Assembly (NCBI GenBank): GCA_037431425.1
Contig: GCA_037431425.1_4129.1
DNA from: a phage
DNA: 64,000 nt
Direction: 5' to 3' (one strand)
In this document: positions 2,793-15,213 of the stretch, in pieces
Layout of the letters: each line of letters starts with the position of its first letter
Numbering within the stretch: position 1 is the first letter of the stretch
Notes under the pieces: model-generated
Told to the model about the DNA's origin: nothing
The model's database searches: none
Seen by the model: only the letters and a program-made list of their open reading frames with translations
Translations under genes and position numbers: made by a program

Positions 2793-3483
2793 ACAAGTAT
2801 ATACGTGTAAATTTTGTGATCGTGAATTTAAGCGAGAAGAAACAGTACAGACACATAAATGCATAAAACGTGACAGATACGAAAATAGACAAAGCCGCCA
2901 GATGATGGAGGCGTTTCGTATCTATATGCAATTTATGGAATTGAACAAATTTACATTTAAAAAAGGCGTAGAGCCTTTTATTGCTTTTATAAAGTCAAAG
3001 TACTTTAACGATTTTTATAGTTTTGCTGAATACTATTTGAATAATAGAGATATTATTAATGTTGACGAGTTTGTAAAGTACTTAATTATTAATAATAGAC
3101 CAATTACAGAATGGAGTACTTACAAAGCAAAAGATGAATGGATATTAAAAACGATTCGTTCTGAGCACCCAAAAGAAGCGATTGCAAGAAGTGTGATATC
3201 GTTGGTTGAATGGGCTGAAAAATTGAATGTACAATGGAATACTTTCTTTAAAAATGTGAGTTCTGCCCGTGCAATTGCATGGATTGAGAGTGGGAAAATA
3301 TCACCATGGATCATTTGGTTATCTCCAAAACAAAGTACTAATACATTTTTTAAAAAGCTATCAAACTCAGAAATTGAATACATACTTAAATACATTGATC
3401 CAAGTTATTTTGAAATTAAAACGATCAAATATAAAACGGATTGCGATGAAATTAAGAGTATGCTACGTGAGGCAGGATTATGA
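2773..3483 (+). CDS. Hypothetical protein with N-terminal C-x2-C...H-x-C zinc-finger-like segment
   Basis: 236-aa ORF; CKFCDREFKREETVQTHKC near N-terminus. Confidence 0.5.
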   Translation: MAKKSNKQVYTCKFCDREFKREETVQTHKCIKRDRYENRQSRQMMEAFRIYMQFMELNKFTFKKGVEPFIAFIKSKYFNDFYSFAEYYLNNRDIINVDEFVKYLIINNRPITEWSTYKAKDEWILKTIRSEHPKEAIARSVISLVEWAEKLNVQWNTFFKNVSSARAIAWIESGKISPWIIWLSPKQSTNTFFKKLSNSEIEYILKYIDPSYFEIKTIKYKTDCDEIKSMLREAGL

Positions 3484-3809
3484 ATGGAAAAAGTATATAT
3501 AATAAAATACCAGAAGGGTATGTACCTGTACCAAAAGAACAAAAAACAAAACAAATATCTCTTCTTAGACAAGGATCTATTACTGAAATAACTTTGGATG
3601 GTAAAACATTTCAAGTTCATGATCCCGCTCGTGTTGAAAAAATAATTTCTTTAGTAGAACGACATGAAGAACGTTTTTTTAGTTTAAGTCAAGAGTTAGC
3701 AAAGACGAAACAAAATTATAAAATATTAGAGAATCAAATAACCACCTTGACTAATACCGTTAAACAGTTACAGGAGCAAGTAAAAAATGCAGGATTTGAC
3801 CGATTCTAA
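3480..3809 (+). CDS. Hypothetical coiled-coil protein
   Basis: 109-aa ORF, start overlaps upstream stop (ATGA). Confidence 0.5.
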   Translation: MNGKSIYNKIPEGYVPVPKEQKTKQISLLRQGSITEITLDGKTFQVHDPARVEKIISLVERHEERFFSLSQELAKTKQNYKILENQITTLTNTVKQLQEQVKNAGFDRF

Positions 3810-4425
3810 ACATTACAGAAAAGCCAGAACTGATATTGATATTGACTTCAAGGATAGTAAAAGCGTCATCGCTAAACTTCCATGCGTGCGAAGTACTGAG
3901 AAAATTACTGAGGATGGTTTAATACCACATAATAGTGGTGTTCATTTTGATAATATACCAATTGACCCAATCACTGGTTTGGCAAGTATACAATATAAAG
4001 AAGCTGAAAGGTTAGGGTATCAAAAAGTTGATATTCTTTCACAGTCAGCTTACATGTATGTTCGCGATAGAGAGCATTTAAAAGAACTAATGAATCAGGA
4101 ACCGAATTGGGATCTTTTACTAGAACCCGAAATTGTAGAGCATCTTTCACAAATTAAAAAACACGTAACTTTATTAAATGTATGGAAGCCTAAATCAATT
4201 GACGAACTTGCAATGTTTATTGCTATGATTCGACCAGGAAAAAGGCAGTGCCAAAGTATGAACACATGGGACGAAGTAAAAGCCACCATATGGGATTATA
4301 GCACTATCGGCACTGACCAATCAGGAAATAAATTACGATATTTCAAAAAGCCACATGCTTATGCATATAGCTTAATGATTGTAGTCCAACTAAATGCTTT
4401 AGTTGAACACCTTACTTCTTCTTAA
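3787..4425 (+). CDS. Hypothetical protein
   Basis: 212-aa ORF. Confidence 0.5.
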   Translation: MQDLTDSKHYRKARTDIDIDFKDSKSVIAKLPCVRSTEKITEDGLIPHNSGVHFDNIPIDPITGLASIQYKEAERLGYQKVDILSQSAYMYVRDREHLKELMNQEPNWDLLLEPEIVEHLSQIKKHVTLLNVWKPKSIDELAMFIAMIRPGKRQCQSMNTWDEVKATIWDYSTIGTDQSGNKLRYFKKPHAYAYSLMIVVQLNALVEHLTSS

Positions 4426-4765
4426 GTGCCACATTACGACGCTTGATTCGTTTCTGTGGTAAATTGCTTAAAGAAACTACAGGACCACATACGAAATTCA
4501 CCGATGGTGTATCAAATCTATGTGTATACGGTTCAAATTTCTCCATCTCTTCTTGAAAGAATAGACACACTGGAATGGTTCTATTACTTTGCCACCACCA
4601 ATCGTGTGCTATACCTAACAATTCGTCTTGCATTGACTCATTCATGTCATCGAAACAGTACATAGTAGTATACTGTTTACTTTTGATTTTGATGATACCA
4701 ATGAACGTTTTACCATCATACTGGATTACAGTAATAAATGGTGGAATAGTGTTATATTGATTCAT
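4412..4765 (-). CDS. Hypothetical protein, opposite strand
   Basis: 117-aa ORF exactly filling the gap between + strand genes ending 4425 and starting 4823; basic C-terminus. Confidence 0.45.
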   Translation of the reverse strand: MNQYNTIPPFITVIQYDGKTFIGIIKIKSKQYTTMYCFDDMNESMQDELLGIAHDWWWQSNRTIPVCLFFQEEMEKFEPYTHRFDTPSVNFVCGPVVSLSNLPQKRIKRRNVALKKK

Positions 4766-4822
4766 ATTAGTTCCATAAATATTAGTATAAATTTATACCT
4801 ATTATTTATGGAAGGAAAAACT

Positions 4823-5800
4823 ATGGCTCATCACGGCGTGTTTATGTACCCTTATAATCAGGAAGTATCATTGGGCAATTTTAATATGCCATATAGCAAT
4901 GAAAAACTAACTATATATAAAGGGGCAAATAATAATTTATCTTTTACTGTTCACAACGCTGATGGAAAGTATACTTTATTGAAAGAAAATGAATATCTTA
5001 CATTTATGATTTTTGATGTACGAAATAACACTAAACTATTCGATGTTGTTTTGGAAAAACAAGAACCAAGTTGGCTATCCGAAAGCGGTCAGGCCCGACA
5101 AACATTGGGAAATAAAAAGAAAGTATATTATGGATGTATTGTTCCAGCAGGTGTTATCCAAGATACCAGTCCTGGTTCCAAATATAGATGGAGTATCACT
5201 AAAGTAACAATGGATGGTTCACTTGTAGAACCAACACAATATCTATATACAGGTATGAACTATGAAGCATCAGCAGAGTTAATTATTTCAGACCGTGCTG
5301 TACCTGTATTTGTCCCTAGTACTGAAATATCTGTCAACCAAAATTCAGCATGGACAACTATTAAGCGTTTATATCCTGAGCCTATTGGTAATGGTATGAT
5401 TGGGGAATATGATATTCTTGCATCAACACCACTCCCTGCACAAATGCAGTTTGGGTTGGTTGATGGATTGAGCAGTATAGCAATCTATTTTGATAAATTT
5501 ATTGGTAGGATACAGCTTCAAGGGTGTTTGTGTAATGACGTACCAAATGATAATGAAAACTATAAATGGTTTATTATTAAATTAGATGGGAAGGATTATA
5601 TTGAAAATGGGATGGATGTAGAAGGATTTCCAGAAGAACTCAATGGAATTCAAGCATTTAATTTTAAAGGAAATTATATGTGGTTGAGAATTGTAGTAGC
5701 TATTCATCCTAAAACTGTCCCAGTGCCGTATGACTATGCTGCTGTGAGAAAACTGTATGACCCTTTCTTAACTGTACCTAAAATTTTGATTCGCAGGTGA
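4823..5800 (+). CDS. Hypothetical protein (possibly structural)
   Basis: ATG at 4823 preceded by GGAAGGA RBS; track ORF 4757 trimmed to this start. Confidence 0.5.
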   Translation: MAHHGVFMYPYNQEVSLGNFNMPYSNEKLTIYKGANNNLSFTVHNADGKYTLLKENEYLTFMIFDVRNNTKLFDVVLEKQEPSWLSESGQARQTLGNKKKVYYGCIVPAGVIQDTSPGSKYRWSITKVTMDGSLVEPTQYLYTGMNYEASAELIISDRAVPVFVPSTEISVNQNSAWTTIKRLYPEPIGNGMIGEYDILASTPLPAQMQFGLVDGLSSIAIYFDKFIGRIQLQGCLCNDVPNDNENYKWFIIKLDGKDYIENGMDVEGFPEELNGIQAFNFKGNYMWLRIVVAIHPKTVPVPYDYAAVRKLYDPFLTVPKILIRR

Positions 5801-6933: not shown

Positions 6934-8454
6934 ATGATTCAAAGCACAGTGGATGTGAAACAATATGGGATTAATGCACAACAATACTTATTATCTCAGA
7001 TTTTCAGTAATCCTGATTTGTATGTACGTTGTAAAAATATCCTTAAACCTGAATATTTTGATAAAACGTTTCATGAAAGTATTCAATTCGTACATGATTA
7101 CGCCGCAAAATATAGTTCTTCACCAACGTTGAAAGATATTGAAGTTAAAGGTGGTTATCAATACGATCATTATGAAGTACAAGAATTACATAAACAATCA
7201 GTGCTTGATACATGTGGTGAGTTTTGTCGCCATAAAGCATTGGCATTGGCAGTTGAAAAAGGAATGGAACTTGTTCATCAGAAAAAATATGGTGGAATCG
7301 AAGAGTTAATCCGAGAAGCGATGTTGGTAACTGTACAGAATGAGTTAGGTTTGGATATTTTTGAAAATCCAGAAGATACCATTCGCTCACTAAGTTCAAT
7401 GCAAGGGTCATTTAAAAGCGGATGGGAAACTCTTGATTATAAACTTTTCGGTGGTTTTGGGCGTAGAGAGTTAGAGATCTTTGCTGCTGCATCAGGTGGT
7501 GGTAAATCAGTAGTGCTACAAAATTTAGCAGTAAACTTTGCTAAAGCTGGTATGAATGGTGCATACATCTCACTAGAACTAGCTGAAGAGTTGGTTGCAG
7601 TTCGTATCTATGGTATGATGACAGAATCGAAACTCAGTAATGTAAAAAATGAAGCTGAAAAGATTGGATTTGCCGTTAAGGTAGAAGGTAAAAACAGTGG
7701 CATCTTGCGTATTAAACGTTTACCTGAATCTGTAACAACAACAGATGATATCGAAAGTTATTTGCGTGAATTACAAATTAAGTTGGAAATAAAACTTGAT
7801 TATGTATGCGTGGACTATTTGGATCTATTAACTTCTAACCGTCTTGGCCCAAATGATAAATCCAACACATTTACAAAAGACAAATTTGTATCAGAAGAAT
7901 TACGTGCTCTTGCGTCCAAAATGGATCTAACAGTTTTCACTGCATCACAGTTTAACCGTAGTGGGATGGATGAAGATAAGAAAAGTCAAAGTCAGATTGC
8001 TGGTGGTATTTCTAAAATTTATACTGCGGATAACGTAATTTATATTGAAGCAAAAAAAGACACTGGTGAATTATGGTTTGATTTCCAAAAAACACGTAAC
8101 AGTAGTGCTGTTGGTTCACGTTTGCGTATGTCATATGATATTGATTCATTGCGTGTTCTTGATCATGCAACTACAGTACAACAAATGGAAACTGAAGGTA
8201 ATGGTTTTCGACACAGTGGACTCTCTAAGATTGGTGGGGGTAATATGGTGTTACCACCTAGTACAATGCAAACATTGCGTCATACGCTCTCTGGTGCTGT
8301 CAAAACACCATCTACACAACCAAACAATCAGATAACACTAAATACTGATAGTGCTCCTAACACCGCAACACAAAATGATTCACTGTCACCGCCACAACAC
8401 GCGGCTTCTGACCGTGTTCATGCGATGAAGCAATGGTTAAATCAAAGGAAATGA
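6934..8454 (+). CDS. Replicative DNA helicase, DnaB/T4 gp41-like
   Basis: Walker A AAASGGGKSV, DnaB-type SQFNRS motif; low-complexity C-terminal extension. Confidence 0.8.
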   Translation: MIQSTVDVKQYGINAQQYLLSQIFSNPDLYVRCKNILKPEYFDKTFHESIQFVHDYAAKYSSSPTLKDIEVKGGYQYDHYEVQELHKQSVLDTCGEFCRHKALALAVEKGMELVHQKKYGGIEELIREAMLVTVQNELGLDIFENPEDTIRSLSSMQGSFKSGWETLDYKLFGGFGRRELEIFAAASGGGKSVVLQNLAVNFAKAGMNGAYISLELAEELVAVRIYGMMTESKLSNVKNEAEKIGFAVKVEGKNSGILRIKRLPESVTTTDDIESYLRELQIKLEIKLDYVCVDYLDLLTSNRLGPNDKSNTFTKDKFVSEELRALASKMDLTVFTASQFNRSGMDEDKKSQSQIAGGISKIYTADNVIYIEAKKDTGELWFDFQKTRNSSAVGSRLRMSYDIDSLRVLDHATTVQQMETEGNGFRHSGLSKIGGGNMVLPPSTMQTLRHTLSGAVKTPSTQPNNQITLNTDSAPNTATQNDSLSPPQHAASDRVHAMKQWLNQRK

Positions 8455-9285: not shown

Positions 9286-9341
9286 TTGTGATAAATATCA
9301 TAAAGTGAGACAGAGGTCTTTTTTATTTTTATGGAGAAAAT

Positions 9342-10286
9342 ATGGATATAAACCAAACAGCAACCGAGCTTCAAAAGTTCGCCGATGCACATAATTTAAA
9401 TGTTGATGTTTCTGTAATTCTTGATAATATGGATGCAGGTGATTTCATCACCTTAAATTCTGCGATTGATAATTCTGACAATCGTGAAATATTCCAAATT
9501 TTACAAAAATACAAAGCACAGATGAGTGAATGTTATGAATACTTCAGTACTAAAAATGTTAGTAAGCATATAAACGAAAGTTCTGAACTTTATAGTATTA
9601 TTGATGCAATGTCACTAAAGCAATTAGAAGAAATGTATAATAAAAAATATACTTATTCTGATACAACAAAATTAACCACACAGGAATTAAAAGCGATTGT
9701 ATTTGAGGATTTTCAAAATCAAACAACACAAATGCAAGCTAAACAAATTGCTAAAATGAATGTTTCTCAAGACCAACAGCAAGTTAATCCACAAACACAA
9801 GCTAAAATGAAACAAGCTGAGCTACAAAGAAATGCTAATAATATAAAGGTTAGTGTTCCTGGTACACAAGACGGTACTGATGCAGTTGAGCCAGTTGTGG
9901 GTATTGATCCTGGACAAACACCCGAACAATCACTAGTAGTAACAAAGAGTGGCACTAAACCGAATGAATTGAATGTTTTTCCATTAAATGATGTCAATCC
10001 TATTGACAATCAAAACACGCCAATCCGTGAGGAAAAATCCCCACAAGAAATCAATAGTGAGCTAATGGGTAATTCAAGTTTAGAGCCTGATAGTAACCCT
10101 GATACACAATCACCACTATCACATCACGCCCCTGGTATGGGTGAAATGATTCATGCTATTTCTGATATCGAAAAAGAAGATGATATTTATGGTGATGAAA
10201 GTGTAATGGCAAACCAGTCCCAATCTGAGAATGATGATATGGTAGATCAAATTATTGATTTTTGTCATCGTATGCGAGGTCGTTAA
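9342..10286 (+). CDS. Hypothetical protein with Q/N-rich central region
   Basis: 314-aa ORF. Confidence 0.5.
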   Translation: MDINQTATELQKFADAHNLNVDVSVILDNMDAGDFITLNSAIDNSDNREIFQILQKYKAQMSECYEYFSTKNVSKHINESSELYSIIDAMSLKQLEEMYNKKYTYSDTTKLTTQELKAIVFEDFQNQTTQMQAKQIAKMNVSQDQQQVNPQTQAKMKQAELQRNANNIKVSVPGTQDGTDAVEPVVGIDPGQTPEQSLVVTKSGTKPNELNVFPLNDVNPIDNQNTPIREEKSPQEINSELMGNSSLEPDSNPDTQSPLSHHAPGMGEMIHAISDIEKEDDIYGDESVMANQSQSENDDMVDQIIDFCHRMRGR

Positions 10287-10504
10287 TGAGAACAGTACTG
10301 AATGTGCATGGTCACAATACGATAGTTTCCAATGAAGAATATAAACTGTTACAAAAGATAAAAGCACGCGGTACTGTTCCAGTTGAAAAAGTAAATGAAT
10401 ATTATCAGGAACTAGCTAATAAAATGGTATCGCGTGGTGTTCTACATAAAATAGAAAATGATGATGGTACTGAATCATACCAAACTGTTAGGAGTAGTAA
10501 ATGA
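10286..10504 (+). CDS. Small hypothetical protein
   Basis: ATG at 10286 overlaps upstream stop (TAATG); track ORF 10262 uses upstream TTG. Confidence 0.45.
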   Translation: MRTVLNVHGHNTIVSNEEYKLLQKIKARGTVPVEKVNEYYQELANKMVSRGVLHKIENDDGTESYQTVRSSK

Positions 10505-11175
10505 ATTACGAATATGATCAACAATCCGTTAATCAGATGGCAGATTTATTAAGTGGTCTTAATGATATTGAAGCTGGTGAAACACATAATGCAGCAGGTG
10601 TTCCCTATAAAGCAAGTGGTGATATTGGTGCAATGACTGCAATTTTAACTTCATTAAATGAAGCTGGAATGGATTACGGTACTGATCCAGAGAAGATTCA
10701 TCCGAACGTTGTACCATACAATGCACCATTCAATGAACACATGAATGGACAACAATCTACCATTCAGCCATATAGTCAACCATCTAAGCCGAAAACTAAT
10801 TGGAGCTTAGTAGAAGAAAAAGTTCAAGGAACTAAATCTACCAAAGTGTATAGTATCAAGTGTAATCATAGTTCACAGATTATTATGAATAATATTATGA
10901 TGTATGAAGCTGCACTTACATTAGTTAATCTTTTGAATGAAGGGCGAATGTTGACAGATGCAAAACTCCTTGGTATAATTAGTTCTGGATTACAATACAC
11001 AAATGTAATTAGTGAGGCATTAAAAGCTGCTCAAAGGCGACAACGTGTTCTTAATGAATCAAAGTATGACGAAGCAAAAGAATTAGATATAATCATTGCA
11101 GAAAAGAAAGCAGAAGCTTATAAATTGAAAGAGCGTGTACTGAACTTTCTTAAAAATGAAGGGTATATTACCTGA
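10501..11175 (+). CDS. Hypothetical protein
   Basis: 224-aa ORF, ATGA overlap with upstream gene. Confidence 0.5.
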   Translation: MNYEYDQQSVNQMADLLSGLNDIEAGETHNAAGVPYKASGDIGAMTAILTSLNEAGMDYGTDPEKIHPNVVPYNAPFNEHMNGQQSTIQPYSQPSKPKTNWSLVEEKVQGTKSTKVYSIKCNHSSQIIMNNIMMYEAALTLVNLLNEGRMLTDAKLLGIISSGLQYTNVISEALKAAQRRQRVLNESKYDEAKELDIIIAEKKAEAYKLKERVLNFLKNEGYIT

Positions 11176-12923
11176 TGTTAGATGAATTGAAGAAATTCTT
11201 AAAAAGCAAAAACAAAAAAACATGGGTTAAGTTGGTAAACAATAATGAATTATATTTTAAATATGTTCGTGATTTGTTCCCAACTAAACCAATGAATGAA
11301 GCATTGTATCTTATTATGAATGACATGGCGTGTGCACCATCTGCTCCATGTGGTTCTGAATGTAAATTTATTAATGGTTCATATGATAAGTATTGTTCTA
11401 AGCCTACAAAACCAAACAAAAATCGTGATAATGGGTTTTGTGTAGTATGTAATGAGCATTGGAAGCAAAACAAACTCAAAAATACTAAACAAAAATGTCT
11501 TGATGTTTATGGTGTCGAACATCATTGGCAAAGAAATGATGTAAAAGATAAAATAAAAAGAACTAATATGAAACGATATGGTGTTGAACACAATTCACAT
11601 GTCGAACATGTTCTTGAAAAAAGAAAGGAAACCTTCATTGAAAGATATGGAGTTGAATCACCGTTATCATCTGTTGAAATTCGTGATAAGATAAAAGCAA
11701 CAAACATTGCAAAATATGGTGTTGAAAATTATGGAAGCACATGTGAATGTATCGAAAAACGAAATAAAACAATGCAAGAATTATATGGTTTTAGTAATGC
11801 ACAACATGTAAAGAAGTTTTCAAATGAATCAAAGATTACTAAATCTAAAATAAGATATGATAAAATTTTATCTATTATTAACCCTTCATATAAAGAACTG
11901 TTTGAATATGATGACTTGATAGATTCAACCAATGAAAGTAAACTTCCGTACTATTGTGAAATACACAAAGGGCTATTTTATAGTAATTATAAATATGGTA
12001 TAGTTTGTGATGTTTGCAACCCGCCTGTATATAGTTCAATACAAAATGAAATAAAAAACTTTGTATCAACATTGACTGAATGTAACATTATCATGAATGA
12101 TAGAAGTAATGGGTATGAGTATGATATATACATCCCTGAACTTCAGATAGCAATAGAAGTCAATGGAATGTATTGGCATAAAAGTGATATGGTTGATAAG
12201 TATTACCATAGAACAAAAACAATAAATTCAATAGAACGTGGGATTAGATTGATACATATCTTTGAAGACGAATGGTACTGTAAACAGGAAATTATTAAAA
12301 ATAGATTAATGAACGTTTTGCAATGTTCTAGAAAGATTTATGCCAGAAAATGTATTGTTAAAAAAATTAACACTAATATTTGTTATGATTTCTTAAACAC
12401 TAATCATATACAAGGATATACTAAATCTGGAATAAACTACGGTTTGTTTTATAATCAAGAATTGATTGCAGTAATGACGTTCGGGAAAAGTCGATATGAT
12501 AAAAAATTTGAATATGAGCTAATACGATACTGCTCACGTGGAACTGTTGTTGGTGGTGCTGGTAAATTATTGTCTGCATTTGAGCGTGAATACAAACCAT
12601 TGTCGTTGATGAGTTACGCTGACTTGAATTGGGGGTCAGGACAGTTATACATATCTCTTAACTTTGAAAATTTAGGATACACAGAACCCAAATATTTTTA
12701 TTATGATCCAAAAACAAAACAGCGTTTTTCTAGACATAAATTGAGAAAACATAAATTGATTGAAATGGGCTACGACTCATCTAAAACTGAAGAAGATATA
12801 TGCTTAGGTGAAATTGGATTGTATAAAATATACGATTCTGGTAATTGCAAATTTGCTAAATATTATTACAACACAAACATTACAGGAGATATTGAAAAAT
12901 GTCCAAATCGTACAAAAAACTAA
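11175..12923 (+). CDS. Large endonuclease-like protein: Cys-rich N-terminus, tandem YGVE repeats, Vsr-like nuclease motif
   Basis: Four to five ~27-aa repeats (YGVEHHWQRNDVKDKIKRT / YGVEHNSHVEHVLEKRKET / YGVESPLSSVEIRDKIKAT / YGVENYG...) then IAIEVNGMYWHKSD resembling the Vsr FxDGxFWH core. Confidence 0.5.
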   Translation: MLDELKKFLKSKNKKTWVKLVNNNELYFKYVRDLFPTKPMNEALYLIMNDMACAPSAPCGSECKFINGSYDKYCSKPTKPNKNRDNGFCVVCNEHWKQNKLKNTKQKCLDVYGVEHHWQRNDVKDKIKRTNMKRYGVEHNSHVEHVLEKRKETFIERYGVESPLSSVEIRDKIKATNIAKYGVENYGSTCECIEKRNKTMQELYGFSNAQHVKKFSNESKITKSKIRYDKILSIINPSYKELFEYDDLIDSTNESKLPYYCEIHKGLFYSNYKYGIVCDVCNPPVYSSIQNEIKNFVSTLTECNIIMNDRSNGYEYDIYIPELQIAIEVNGMYWHKSDMVDKYYHRTKTINSIERGIRLIHIFEDEWYCKQEIIKNRLMNVLQCSRKIYARKCIVKKINTNICYDFLNTNHIQGYTKSGINYGLFYNQELIAVMTFGKSRYDKKFEYELIRYCSRGTVVGGAGKLLSAFEREYKPLSLMSYADLNWGSGQLYISLNFENLGYTEPKYFYYDPKTKQRFSRHKLRKHKLIEMGYDSSKTEEDICLGEIGLYKIYDSGNCKFAKYYYNTNITGDIEKCPNRTKN

Positions 12924-13534
12924 TGGAAACTGCTTCTCGTGCTGAAGCAATGAAATTTATTAAATTGAATGAATCTAATATTGAAAAGGCAGAAATCGTC
13001 CTTTCAGTTAAAGGTGAAATTGTTGATAAATTACAACGTCAATCAGAGGTTATTAATAACATGGGCGTTGACGTACTAGGCCCACTACTGGATCGTATTA
13101 AAGCTGAACAGGGTTTGGATGCTGCACAAAATTTTAGTGATAATGTTCGTCATCTTCTACAACATGCTGTAGCTACTTTAATGGACGTGAAAGACAAAAT
13201 CAGTACTGAAACACTAAAACTAACTGGTGATATTACTGATGGTCCTGATGTTTCTGATATTGGTAGTGAAGATGTTGATATTGACATTGCCACAGACACC
13301 CCAACTTTCGATATGGATGCTGATGCAGATTTTGAAGATGATATTATTTCTGAACCTGTCCCAACTGAGCGTGAGATGAAAGAATCGGTTAAACCACGTA
13401 AAGTTGGTGTAAAAATGGAAAGTATTCGCGGTACTGTAGGAACTAAATACTTTAGTTCAAAAGACGAAATGAAAACATGGCTATCTGAGAATGAAAAGAA
13501 AGTTAAACGTGTTCTAGGGTATGTTAAAAAATAA
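12899..13534 (+). CDS. Acidic hypothetical protein
   Basis: 211-aa ORF, CAGGAGA RBS before ATG 12899. Confidence 0.5.
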   Translation: MSKSYKKLMETASRAEAMKFIKLNESNIEKAEIVLSVKGEIVDKLQRQSEVINNMGVDVLGPLLDRIKAEQGLDAAQNFSDNVRHLLQHAVATLMDVKDKISTETLKLTGDITDGPDVSDIGSEDVDIDIATDTPTFDMDADADFEDDIISEPVPTEREMKESVKPRKVGVKMESIRGTVGTKYFSSKDEMKTWLSENEKKVKRVLGYVKK

Positions 13535-13550
13535 TAAAGGGTGAATCTAC

Positions 13551-13886
13551 ATGAGGTTTAGTGATCTTACTGAAGAGGCTCCTGGAAAAGATATACGCAA
13601 TATGATTACGACTATTGCGTTGTCTTTAATGTCCACTGGTAGAGAAGATGTGAATGTTCAATCTTTAATTTCTGAAATTAAAAAGAGAACCAATATAGAT
13701 GTTCCATACAATGTGATGATGGATATTTTGAATTCCCTACCTTTTGTACAGGATGCTAATTCAGATATTGTAACTTTTGTTGGAAATTCAGCAGAAGGTT
13801 CAGGTGAATCTGAACAAAATTCGGAAGAGCAAGTTGAAGATTGGGCAACAAAAGCTGCTGTGACAGCAAATAAACAAAAAAACTGA
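13551..13886 (+). CDS. Hypothetical protein
   Basis: 111-aa ORF. Confidence 0.5.
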   Translation: MRFSDLTEEAPGKDIRNMITTIALSLMSTGREDVNVQSLISEIKKRTNIDVPYNVMMDILNSLPFVQDANSDIVTFVGNSAEGSGESEQNSEEQVEDWATKAAVTANKQKN

Positions 13887-13925
13887 AACAAATAAAAATA
13901 TAATGCTATAATTAGGAGTACACGG

Positions 13926-14645
13926 ATGTACACACCACCAATTGTTAGCAGATATACATACGTTGGTTATAATAGAATTGAAGGCGGCCCAGAAGGTCGC
14001 CTTTATTCAACTCCAACAGGTAATCTGCCATCAGTAACAACAATTCTTAGTGCGACCTCGAATGATGAGGGTTTAAAGAAGTGGAGAGAATTCGTTGGTG
14101 AAGAAAAAGCTAATGAAATCACATTAGAAGCATGTACAATTGGTACTTTTATGCATGAGAACTTAGAATTTAGATTAGAAGGTAAACCAGACCATGAAGG
14201 TGGTATGCCAGTTAGAGTTCTAGCACGAAAGATGGCTGATAAGATTCAGGAAGAAGCATGGCCTAGAATCAATGAAGTGTGGGGACAGGAAGTTCCCTTG
14301 TATTATGAAGGTTTGTGGGCAGGTACAACCGACTTAGTAGGTGTTCATGATGGAATTCCAACCATTATGGATTATAAAAATTCTCGTAAGGTTAAGAAGT
14401 GGTCACAAATTGAAAATTATCGTATGCAAATCGCTGCGTATGCATTAGCTCACAATCAAATGTTTGGCACTAATATAGAACGTGGTGTTATTTTCATCTG
14501 TGTAAGAAAAGACCCTAATAATCTACAATATCAAGAGTTTATTATTGAAGGTCAAGACTTCAAAGATGCTGTTAATATGTGGATTGAACGTGTAGAACAA
14601 TACTATATTTTACGTGGAGAAATTGAATCAAATGGAGCAGCATAA
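13926..14645 (+). CDS. PD-(D/E)XK-type nuclease (RecB/Cas4/YqaJ-like fold), putative
   Basis: GTTDLV...IMDYKNSRK consistent with D...(D/E)xK; AGGAG RBS. Confidence 0.5.
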   Translation: MYTPPIVSRYTYVGYNRIEGGPEGRLYSTPTGNLPSVTTILSATSNDEGLKKWREFVGEEKANEITLEACTIGTFMHENLEFRLEGKPDHEGGMPVRVLARKMADKIQEEAWPRINEVWGQEVPLYYEGLWAGTTDLVGVHDGIPTIMDYKNSRKVKKWSQIENYRMQIAAYALAHNQMFGTNIERGVIFICVRKDPNNLQYQEFIIEGQDFKDAVNMWIERVEQYYILRGEIESNGAA

Positions 14646-14649
14646 AAAA

Positions 14650-15186
14650 ATGAAACAAGATCTATATACAATTCGTGCTTTAGAAAGTAAAGGGTATGAT
14701 TTAGAAGAAGTTATTAAACTAAGTGATGAACAAATTGACAATCTTGAATTATCACATAAACTGATTCTAAATATTAAAGATTATAAACAGCGTGGTGCTA
14801 AACCAGTGGAAGTAATTAAAGAACAAATTGCACAAGATATTAGTATCGATGAGGTATCACGTAATGTACCACCAGAAGTAATCCAAGAGTATGCTGTCAA
14901 TAGTGAAGAACAGGTAAAAGTTTCTAAAGAAGTCGAAAGTATGGCAGACGAACTAGTTCCTGAAGTCAAAGAAGATGAAATTGTTATCGAGCGAGTGGTT
15001 TCTTCTAAAGAAGATTTGGATATTATTAAAGAAGCACTACAAACTAAAGAGCTTAAAAGTGTATCTAGTTATGTAAAACATTTAAAATCTATCGTCCCAG
15101 AACAGATTCTATCTTCTGTTGATAGTTCAGTAGTATCTCAGTTGATCAATGAGCGTATTACTGAAGTTAAAGAAAAAGCTAAATAA
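14650..15186 (+). CDS. Acidic hypothetical protein
   Basis: ATG at 14650 directly after upstream stop with GGAG upstream; track ORF starts at an upstream GTG. Confidence 0.45.
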   Translation: MKQDLYTIRALESKGYDLEEVIKLSDEQIDNLELSHKLILNIKDYKQRGAKPVEVIKEQIAQDISIDEVSRNVPPEVIQEYAVNSEEQVKVSKEVESMADELVPEVKEDEIVIERVVSSKEDLDIIKEALQTKELKSVSSYVKHLKSIVPEQILSSVDSSVVSQLINERITEVKEKAK

Positions 15187-15213
15187 TCCTATGATACTAT
15201 AGGAGATAGTTTT

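Follow-up and report, generated by a model that had tools for sequence, protein, structure and literature searches.

The open reading frame at 11175..12923 of the window (the whole 64,000-nucleotide stretch of phage DNA analysed here) is, in our judgement, likely to be a functional homing endonuclease gene (HEG) that is free-standing and belongs to the Hef-like branch within the EDxHD, or Vsr-like, family. The window phage is an Asteriusvirus jumbo coliphage; ph0011 is 98.6% identical, and there the near-identical gene carries the label "hypothetical protein". A sequence-only reading of this DNA had claimed a 582-aa open reading frame with a Cys-rich N-terminal region, tandem repeats, a Vsr-like nuclease motif, and an unassigned C-terminal domain. 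The frame, its strand, and its ATG start are borne out, and an AF2 model of the protein (mean pLDDT 93.4), taken together with a 121-member family alignment, resolves the coding sequence as follows:

11175..12923, plus strand: complete coding sequence, Hef-like homing endonuclease (582 aa and a stop codon, ATG start) (open reading frame list, PHROG 3339, tblastn relatives)
11175..11324, plus strand: N-terminal four-helix region, aa 1-50 (AF2 models, pLDDT 95-98)
11331..11450, plus strand: first Cys cluster, aa 53-92 (C53, C59, C63, C74, C89, C92), a probable zinc ribbon (121-member alignment, AF2 model)
11484..11828, plus strand: five tandem 23-aa helix-loop repeats, aa 104-218, Pfam DUF7487 (Pfam, autocorrelation, model)
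11943..12023, plus strand: second zinc module, aa 257-283 (C261, H264, C278, C281), of treble-clef / zinc-ribbon type (alignment, model)
12033..12320, plus strand: Vsr-like (EDxHD-type) nuclease domain, aa 287-382 (alignment to I-Bth0305I, family alignment)
12321..12869, plus strand: Mom-family GNAT-fold domain, aa 383-565 (fold match, family alignment)
12870..12923, plus strand: C-terminal tail, 17 aa plus stop, disordered and non-conserved (pLDDT <50 at aa 567-582)

By sequence, the 582-aa protein joins a known family, the Hef-like / EDxHD (Vsr-like) free-standing phage homing endonucleases. It matches PHROG 3339, "homing endonuclease", over its full length (1.6e-135, aa 3-563), and its tblastn relatives bear the names hef, Hef-like, and 'homing endonuclease EDxHD'; the Hef-like proteins of RaK2 (hef), K64-1, CP220, and KARL-1 are 30-47% identical over 88-93% of the protein, and in a separate comparison RaK2 hef is 46-47% identical over 92-97% of it. 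Campylobacter phage CP220 Hef and LIMEstone F-LimIII/VII/VIII/X belong to the same Hef-like kin. Phage Hef-type enzymes were placed in the EDxHD family by Taylor et al. 2011 (PMC3239194), and the Hef (homing endonuclease-like function) of phage U5 has been reported as a homing endonuclease that cuts nrdB (reviewed in PMC2988022); it is through annotations and Taylor et al. that the Hef of this T4-related phage is linked to the 582-aa protein. A family search found 1134 places in 437 phage records, with up to 12 places per genome in a paralogue search, a copy number typical of HEGs; a second paralogue is equally sporadic in its presence, and within the window tblastn with the 582-aa protein matched solely its own gene.

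Like Hef-like enzymes elsewhere, the protein is encoded free-standing between phage genes, is sporadic in close relatives, and has a family that is multi-copy in large phages; unlike its Hef relatives, in which the 23-aa unit is present in 1 to 14 copies, it combines five repeats with clade-specific N-terminal helices, a rearranged first zinc site, and G463/N485 in the Mom-like domain. The sequence-only reading had left the choice between a homing-type and a defence-related endonuclease. PHROG 3339, I-Bth0305I, the hef annotations, and the pattern of presence and absence described below all agree on the first; the second is without direct support, the defence-system models of PADLOC having given only a weak 'HEase' match (E = 6e-4). 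An NCBIfam scan of the protein gave no match.

The gene had also been described as sitting between unrelated early genes as if inserted. A presence/absence polymorphism with sharp junctions bears out the insertion; the "early" character of the neighbours is not borne out, their annotations being hypothetical or virion structural proteins, although a perfect sigma-70 promoter (below) lies upstream. The junctions are defined by these features:

11169..12896, unstranded: HEG segment, 1.73 kb (blastn homology to PBECO4 ends at 11168 and restarts at 12897)
11108..11168, unstranded: left flank, the 3′ end of the upstream gene 10501..11175 (5 fixed differences in 60 columns, against a mean of 1.4)
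12897..12956, unstranded: right flank, the 5′ end of the downstream gene 12899..13534 (6 fixed differences in 60 columns, and a 3-bp insertion)

The window phage, ph0011, and UE-S1 have the 1.73-kb segment in common; HEG-less Asteriusviruses instead have a 37-bp intergenic spacer (PBECO4 locus L001, 3367-3403), and a check of synteny in about 40 relatives lacking the gene found this clean spacer at the identical point. The flanks match 45 phage records, and the gene is present in 2 of the 45, which alone span the whole query region. GC content is 0.27-0.31 inside the segment as against 0.33-0.38 in the flanks. Outside Asteriusvirus, RaK2 and two jumbo-phage contigs from metagenomes (L009 and L010) have orthologues, 46-53% identical, in the same slot; these identities do not scale with flank divergence and fall inside, or close to, the range seen for the neighbouring genes (for RaK2, 46% for the HEG and 43-85% for its neighbours). 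Ancient residence of the gene, followed by its loss in most Asteriusviruses, could account for the polymorphism equally well.

Substitutions in the flanks are allele-specific, being common to the three HEG-carrying genomes: 120 columns across the junction contain 11 HEG-specific substitutions against a mean of 2.8, which places them in the top 0.4% of windows. We regard the right flank (12897..12956) as a candidate recognition or co-conversion zone.

Within the upstream gene, 200 bp 5′ of the endonuclease gene, lies a promoter:

10951..10979, plus strand: sigma-70 promoter, TTGACA, 17-nt spacer, TG-extended TATAAT (12/12 consensus match)

This resident promoter is conserved whether or not a relative carries the endonuclease gene, and transcription of that gene and of those that follow probably starts from it. 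Promoter-like sites overall are no commoner than chance, and only the 12/12 site at 10951 stands out. A terminator scan around the gene found none. At its 5′ end the ATG of the gene overlaps the TGA stop of the upstream gene by one base (TGATG), and at its 3′ end the tail overlaps the downstream open reading frame by 25 nt, with the GGAG ribosome-binding site of the downstream gene lying inside the endonuclease tail according to the junction alignment.

The proposed Vsr-like nuclease motif proved well founded: IAIEVNGMYWH at aa 325-335 is the core motif of a Vsr-like nuclease and aligns to LAIEVNGVYW of the EDxHD homing endonuclease I-Bth0305I (PDB 3R3P), the best solved relative. The fold of the domain is that of a Vsr-like nuclease and is homologous to the catalytic domain of I-Bth0305I. 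Specifically, i) D317, N330, and H335 match EDxHD residues D196, N208, and H213 of I-Bth0305I; ii) the fifth EDxHD position (D222 in I-Bth0305I) is His345, and is His in 120 of 121 relatives; iii) the EDxHD 'E' (E170 in I-Bth0305I) is ambiguous, the equivalent being either E292 (Glu in 84/121) or Q290 (Glu in 104/121); and iv) among the putative catalytic residues, E292 (or position 290), D317, E328, N330, H335, H345, K348, and E364, the set D317, E328, H335, H345, K348, and E364 is intact, and each is retained in 116-121 of 121 relatives. I-Bth0305I itself is intron-encoded, with 266 aa and two NUMOD/HTH motifs, and shares the AIEVNG.YWH core; the 582-aa protein differs from it in being free-standing, in having zinc modules and DUF7487 repeats, and in carrying an additional Mom-like domain. 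No NUMOD/HTH families were detected in the N-terminal half, which is occupied by the zinc modules and repeats; the NUMOD/HTH region is a feature of the prototype and does not define the EDxHD nuclease family. As for the Vsr repair endonuclease and DUF559 / MTES_1575, the Pfam score here is below threshold, there is no mismatch-repair context, and the zinc site and intercalating residues of Vsr fall outside the match to the 582-aa protein.

The helices of aa 1-50 are conserved only in the closest jumbo-phage relatives, and the Cys-rich N-terminal region that follows them, also proposed from the bare sequence, is confirmed by C59, C74, and C92, each conserved in 90% or more of the 121 family members, and is joined by a second cluster at aa 261-281. 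In the first cluster the family consensus is C56, C59, C74, and C92 (present in 106-116 of 121 members); the 582-aa protein has S56 at the first of these positions, its C89 sits in a clade-specific insertion, and the model places a beta-hairpin at aa 62-74. The second cluster has the form C-x2-H...C-x2-C here and C-x2-C...C-x2-C in 84-105 of 121 members; the model has beta-strands at aa 257-270, and Pfam DUF4379 matches the equivalent region of one homologue (P0116).

Between the two zinc modules lies the repeat array. The earlier description of four to five repeats of about 27 aa was correct as to five units and mistaken as to their period, which is exactly 23 aa: YG[VF] is found at aa 112, 135, 158, 181, and 204, and Gly is almost invariant at aa 113, 136, 159, and 182. 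The repeats are supported statistically, with a BLOSUM autocorrelation at lag 23 that scores 87 (z = 10.7 against shuffles); when the maximum over all lags was taken for each of 5000 shuffles the mean was -19.5, the standard deviation 10, and the highest value 29, so that 0/5000 reached the observed score. Pfam DUF7487 (PF24308) matches the array at 5.6e-23 and 82.4 bits, the gathering cut-off being 27. Conserved scaffold positions are interleaved with hypervariable ones within the unit, and the module by itself matches 15,461 protein clusters. It occurs with the nuclease and the Mom-like domain, with the nuclease alone, or with neither.

We presume that the array is a DNA-reading module. Like the NUMODs of I-TevI and I-HmuI and like TALE-type arrays, it consists of short tandem units that vary in copy number and are attached to differing catalytic modules. 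The likeness is one of analogy only, since neither NUMODs nor TALE-type arrays have any sequence or structural similarity to the 23-aa DUF7487 unit. A structure search with the array, or with the 23-aa unit of one helix plus loop, found no PDB relative, and a literature search on DUF7487 found nothing.

A C-terminal domain does exist, as had been claimed, at aa ~383-565; it is no longer unassigned. Its best structural match is phage Mu Mom (PDB 8BV8), with which it shares a GNAT core and an additional helical insertion placed between the last strands. Mu Mom is a tRNA-dependent adenine N6-carbamoylmethylase of dsDNA; here a Mom-like domain is instead fused to a nuclease and a putative DNA-binding array. 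The Mom residues H58, R111, D149, and Y159 correspond to H411, R451, D483, and Y492 (H58 and H411, which lie beyond the hhalign range, were paired by motif), and H411, R451, and Y492 are present in 121 of 121 family members and D483 in 114. Mom S124 and R151 correspond to G463 and N485, and the six-residue momylation set is therefore incomplete in the 582-aa protein; the full set (H58, R111, S124, D149, R151, Y159) is kept by only 45 of 121 relatives. The Pfam Mom model (PF25680) gives 20.3 bits for the 582-aa protein, under the cut-off of 27.1, and is passed by 7 of the 10 homologues from the family that were scanned (27.6-34.9 bits). Our literature search found no link of Mom to EDxHD or Hef enzymes beyond a general statement on jumbo-phage Mom-REase fusions.

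Such fusions bring to mind a single-chain modification-restriction weapon, in which adenines of the phage's own DNA would be acylated or aminoacylated by the Mom-like domain and any host or competitor DNA lacking the modification would be destroyed by the nuclease fused to it, making the protein a conflict or superinfection-exclusion factor instead of a selfish homing element. Iyer et al. predict this role for jumbo-phage Mom-REase fusions, and the structural match to Mu Mom, the homologues that pass the Pfam model, the conserved Mom-site equivalents, the purifying selection on the Mom-like domain (dN/dS 0.14), and the demonstration that Mom modifies dsDNA with Gly-tRNA(Gly) (PMC13219725) would all accord with it. 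We nonetheless consider it improbable: Mu Mom S124A and R151A are inactive (PMC13219725), and these are the residues replaced here, the full six-residue set being kept by a minority of relatives; genome-wide protection should be fixed in the lineage, whereas the gene is found in few of the records and clean empty sites are found elsewhere; many divergent paralogues per genome with variable arrays point to many sequence specificities; one intergenic slot is occupied across genera; and PADLOC found no defence-family match except 'HEase'.

Given the replacement of two residues that Mu Mom cannot do without, we think that the Mom-like domain of this copy most likely serves as a dsDNA-binding or positioning module and not as an active adenine-modifying enzyme; it is in any event an integral, selected part of the protein. 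The invariance of H411, R451, and Y492 suggests an enzymatic role that plain homing leaves unexplained. One speculative and rather unlikely extension is that Hef-type enzymes are bifunctional, with a universally retained Mom-family domain that aminoacylates or acylates dsDNA adenines, perhaps at or near the enzyme's own recognition site and perhaps by means of a charged tRNA as in Mu Mom, and that the DUF7487 unit, found in >15,000 protein clusters, is a new modular DNA-reading repeat whose specificity is set by hypervariable positions 1, 3, 13-15, and 18.

Relative to the UE-S1 orthologue, dN/dS is 0.13 overall and 0.04-0.24 per domain, and all domains are under purifying selection. A pseudogene or decaying HEG is ruled out by this value, the intact nuclease residues, and the confident model. 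Selection on every domain, together with same-slot orthologues in four deep lineages, would also fit a domesticated or cleavage-dead homing endonuclease kept for a function of the host phage, for example site-specific DNA binding that regulates the neighbours, marker exclusion, or the promotion of recombination or replication close to the end of the genome; in UE-S1 the gene does lie just inside the annotated terminal repeat, it supplies the ribosome-binding site of the downstream gene and is therefore wired into the operon, and it has Gln at position 290, where most relatives carry Glu. Against such domestication, which we hold to be quite improbable, the strongly conserved nuclease residues are all intact, most close relatives thrive without the gene, and an active HEG passing through its invasion-loss cycle would be expected to persist in one slot and yet be present only sporadically.

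As an active HEG, the gene would be transcribed from the resident sigma-70 promoter and translated by coupling at the TGATG stop/start overlap; in a mixed infection the protein would recognise the HEG-less gp478/gp477 junction allele by means of its N-terminal zinc module and the five 23-aa helix-loop repeats; the Vsr-like domain (D317, E328, N330, H335, H345) would cut the DNA; and recombinational repair from the HEG-carrying genome would copy the gene along with its flanks, over a few dozen to a few hundred bp. The phage's own allele would escape cleavage, since its site is altered by the insertion and by the substitutions clustered in the flanks.

What has been called a "hypothetical protein" can now be annotated as an EDxHD homing endonuclease of the Hef-like type whose anatomy is defined in five parts, and its slot marks a hot spot of recombination in Asteriusvirus and in jumbo phages like RaK2. 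We wish to stress that the Mom-like domain and the repeat array are little-studied features of a phage protein family that is very abundant, and are not specific to the window. A confidently predicted DUF7487 array that is without structural precedent could be of interest as a DNA-targeting scaffold. Near-invariant equivalents of Mom-site residues inside supposed plain homing endonucleases have become testable since the tRNA-dependent chemistry of Mom was solved in 2026; were Hef-type enzymes indeed bifunctional, the Mom-like domain would provide chemical self-immunity for the carrier genome or mark the cut and repaired DNA, and homing in this family would be coupled to modification.

The 582-aa ORF that the sequence-only reading placed at 11175-12923 (+) lies exactly there, and it is most probably an active, free-standing Hef-type EDxHD homing endonuclease gene (HEG) targeting the HEG-less gp478/gp477 junction of related jumbo phages. 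That reading's call of a homing-type endonuclease was correct, given a full-length match to PHROG 3339 "homing endonuclease" (aa 3-563, 1.6e-135) and presence/absence polymorphism. T4-related phages have a recognised class of free-standing "Hef-like" endonucleases (PMC3296691), and phage U5 Hef is described as a unique endonuclease whose cleavage target is nrdB (PMC2988022). A tblastn search found relatives at 1134 places in 437 phage records, annotated as "hef", "Hef-like homing endonuclease", or "homing endonuclease EDxHD", with RaK2, K64-1, Muenster, Campylobacter CP220, Acinetobacter KARL-1, and Salmonella SG1 among the annotated phages; a large protein database holds at least 1967 homologs, and there the phage UE-S1 ortholog is a "putative homing endonuclease".

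The immediate neighborhood is as follows:

10501-11175, upstream ORF (gp478 equivalent), whose TGA stop is overlapped by one base of the HEG ATG
10951-10979 (+), promoter within the upstream gene
11175-12923 (+), HEG, ATG start
12899-13534, downstream ORF (gp477 equivalent), its start overlapped by the last 25 nt of the HEG

Over window positions 9300-15200, identity is 98.6% to Escherichia phage ph0011 and 90.6% to UE-S1, both Asteriusvirus jumbo phages of ~350 kb. The flanks are matched by 45 phage records, but the whole query only by these two; about 40 others, including PBECO4, 121Q, phAPEC6, E9.1, and Turkey3, match 71% of it in two pieces. PBECO4 homology ends at 11168 and restarts at 12897, bearing out by comparison with relatives lacking the gene the impression that it sits as if inserted: a 37-bp spacer from the gp478 stop codon to the gp477 start codon corresponds to a 1.73-kb segment in HEG carriers. 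Within the segment, GC content falls to 0.27-0.31 (dip at 11250-12750), against 0.33-0.38 for the flanking genes. Across the 120 alignment columns that span the junction, the three genomes with the HEG have 11 substitutions in common, among them a 3-bp insertion in the fourth codon of the downstream gene; the mean is 2.8 per 120-column window, and the junction window falls in the top 0.4%. Such a cluster is expected of target-site immunity or co-conversion, but is only suggestive, since an equal score is reached by a hypervariable patch at 10.68-10.80 kb. Two such patches (10680-10800 and 8300-8400) occur among these ~90%-identical Asteriusvirus genomes, each with 53-55 variable columns per 100 bp versus a typical 15-30, the former with 12 substitutions per 120 columns specific to HEG carriers.

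Several other features of the region may be recorded: i) the PBECO4 spacer (3370-3385 of its HEG-less locus) contains TAAATGAGTGATA, which resembles TAAATGATTGAAC at 4995-5012 of the metagenomic jumbo-phage contig L009, the stop/start junction and first codons of the L009 endonuclease gene, and could be a deletion scar or a chance likeness in AT-rich DNA; ii) in UE-S1 (locus 3377-5283; record ON568341, 6419-8325), the HEG is a short way within the left terminal repeat, annotated at 8298 bp, whose boundary is 128 bp beyond the HEG stop, two overlapping CDS being annotated for the downstream gene at that boundary, and UE-S1 gives 4 tblastn matches versus 3 for ph0011, the extra one being what duplication of the gene in the right-hand repeat would predict; and iii) the + strand carries all 22 window ORFs of 250 aa or more, and ARAGORN found no tRNA or tmRNA genes in window 1-64000.

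The promoter is of the TG-extended sigma-70 type (TTGACA, 17-nt spacer, TATAAT; 12/12) and is kept in six related phages (one mismatch in Turkey3), whether or not the genome carries the HEG; the insert therefore probably exploits a resident promoter. The 3′ end of the insert gives the downstream gene a new GGAG ribosome-binding site, and a scan around the HEG found no terminator-like sites.

A confident AlphaFold2 model built from 121 family members (mean pLDDT 93.4) gives the anatomy below, and the Cys-rich N-terminal part noted earlier is present.

Domains of the HEG product in the AlphaFold2 model
short helical N-terminus
zinc-ribbon-like hairpin
five helix-loop repeats
second zinc module: C261, H264, C278, C281
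alpha/beta nuclease domain: aa ~287-382
C-terminal alpha/beta domain: aa ~383-565
disordered 17-aa tail: read-through into the next gene

The tandem repeats seen in the sequence are real, but their period is exactly 23 aa rather than ~27: five units span aa 104-218, with YG[VF] at aa 112, 135, 158, 181, and 204. Statistical support holds, since BLOSUM62 autocorrelation at lag 23 is 87 (z = 10.7) and none of 5000 region shuffles, scored by the maximum over all lags, reaches it (mean -19.5, sd 10.0, highest 29). Pfam DUF7487 matches the array (5.6e-23). The family consensus, from 845 units, is IKQTNLEKYGVENPLQSKEIKEK, in which T4, Y9, G10, and K23 are nearly fixed and positions 1, 3, 13-15, and 18 most variable; the number of consecutive units in relatives ranges from 1 to 14. 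A search with the array alone gives 15,461 matching clusters (50% identity, E <= 1e-3) among 1.84 billion representatives. Among the best 147 of these, 50 have both nuclease and Mom-like domain, 28 the nuclease only, and 69 neither; in 10 scanned members with neither, unassigned or zinc-finger regions precede the array, which mostly falls in the C-terminal half. The array, found in such differing domain company, is therefore a genuine and very widespread module, which fits the idea of a putative modular DNA-binding array.

The nuclease motif IAIEVNGMYWH is present as reported, at aa 325-335. The EDxHD homing endonuclease family has I-Bth0305I as its prototype, and the authors who described that enzyme explicitly counted "bacteriophage Hef type homing endonucleases" within the family (PMC3239194). 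Among the I-Bth0305I motif residues E170, D196, N208 (the "x"), H213, and D222, the equivalents of D196, N208, and H213 are D317, N330, and H335, whereas D222 aligns with His345 (His in 120/121 relatives); the "E" is either E292 or position 290, a Gln in this protein and a Glu in 104/121 relatives. Conservation is likewise complete or almost complete at E328, K348, and E364. The HEG has the EDxHD fold and core motif, and the literal five-residue signature in part. Domestication as a binder is improbable, being weakened by these intact nuclease residues. In an active homing endonuclease, the zinc modules and 23-aa repeats would recognise the target, and the Vsr-like domain would cut the HEG-less gp478/gp477 junction.

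A large C-terminal domain is indeed present, but it does not stay unassigned: the isolated domain matches only the Pfam Mom model PF25680, below threshold here (20.3 versus 27.1 bits) and above it in 7/10 homologs scanned, and hhalign aligns the family with Mu Mom (E = 8.5e-4).

Mom residues, HEG equivalents, family state (of 121), and source of pairing
H58: H411; 121/121; paired by motif, beyond hhalign range
R111: R451; 121/121; hhalign
S124: G463; Ser in 91, Gly in 24; hhalign
D149: D483; 114/121; hhalign
R151: N485; Arg in 70; hhalign
Y159: Y492; 121/121; hhalign

Mom, as shown in 2026, modifies adenine in dsDNA with Gly-tRNA(Gly), and either S124A or R151A inactivates it (PMC13219725). 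All six equivalents are retained in only 45/121 family members, and the H-R-G-D-N-Y set is confined to the HEG and its UE-S1 ortholog. The role of the domain in the HEG is probably DNA binding or positioning, because it has replacements at two residues that Mom requires; given that the other catalytic-site equivalents are invariant family-wide, an enzymatic role may nonetheless be retained. Mom-nuclease fusion as such is already known. A rival reading is a Mom-REase modification-restriction weapon; we consider it improbable given the sporadic distribution, multi-copy pattern, and site-fixed location.

A second Hef-like paralog, P0008, lies outside the window (ph0011 OP557969, 131402-133360; 664 aa, 43% identical, ~10 repeat units), equally sporadic and found among Asteriusvirus genomes only in ph0011, UE-S1, and TH47; its orthologs in RaK2-like Klebsiella phages are 55% identical. 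The HEG's closest relatives outside the genus, in RaK2, L009, and a second metagenomic contig, L010, sit in exactly the same slot (helicase ... gp478-like, HEG, gp477-like ... exonuclease ... nrdA). Their identities are 46% (RaK2 hef), 52% (L009), and 53% (L010), while neighboring proteins range over 43-85%, 60-92%, and 42-78%, respectively; the HEG is thus at 46-53% throughout, and is the most diverged gene versus L009. Because its divergence is partly decoupled from that of its neighbors, the comparison favors turnover at a putative fixed homing site, with ancient residence followed by loss in most Asteriusviruses a plausible alternative. Either history would be ordinary for a homing endonuclease gene, whose known life cycle includes both. 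Downstream of this gene block, L010 (SRR30962893, 9682-11698) carries a second, unrelated homing element, intein-splicing and LAGLIDADG domains within a ribonucleotide reductase large-subunit gene. Relative to the UE-S1 ortholog, dN/dS is 0.13 overall (N-terminus 0.16, repeats 0.24, linker and second zinc module 0.04, nuclease 0.05, Mom-like domain 0.14), and the HEG is therefore maintained, not decaying.

We found no paper in the literature searched that joins the earlier remark on Mom-REase fusions to the Hef/EDxHD homing literature. We wish to stress that the HEG belongs to a known class of phage genes and its specialist interest is modest; the leads reaching beyond it are two, the presence of a Mom-like domain in homing endonucleases and the DUF7487 array, which has no structural precedent.
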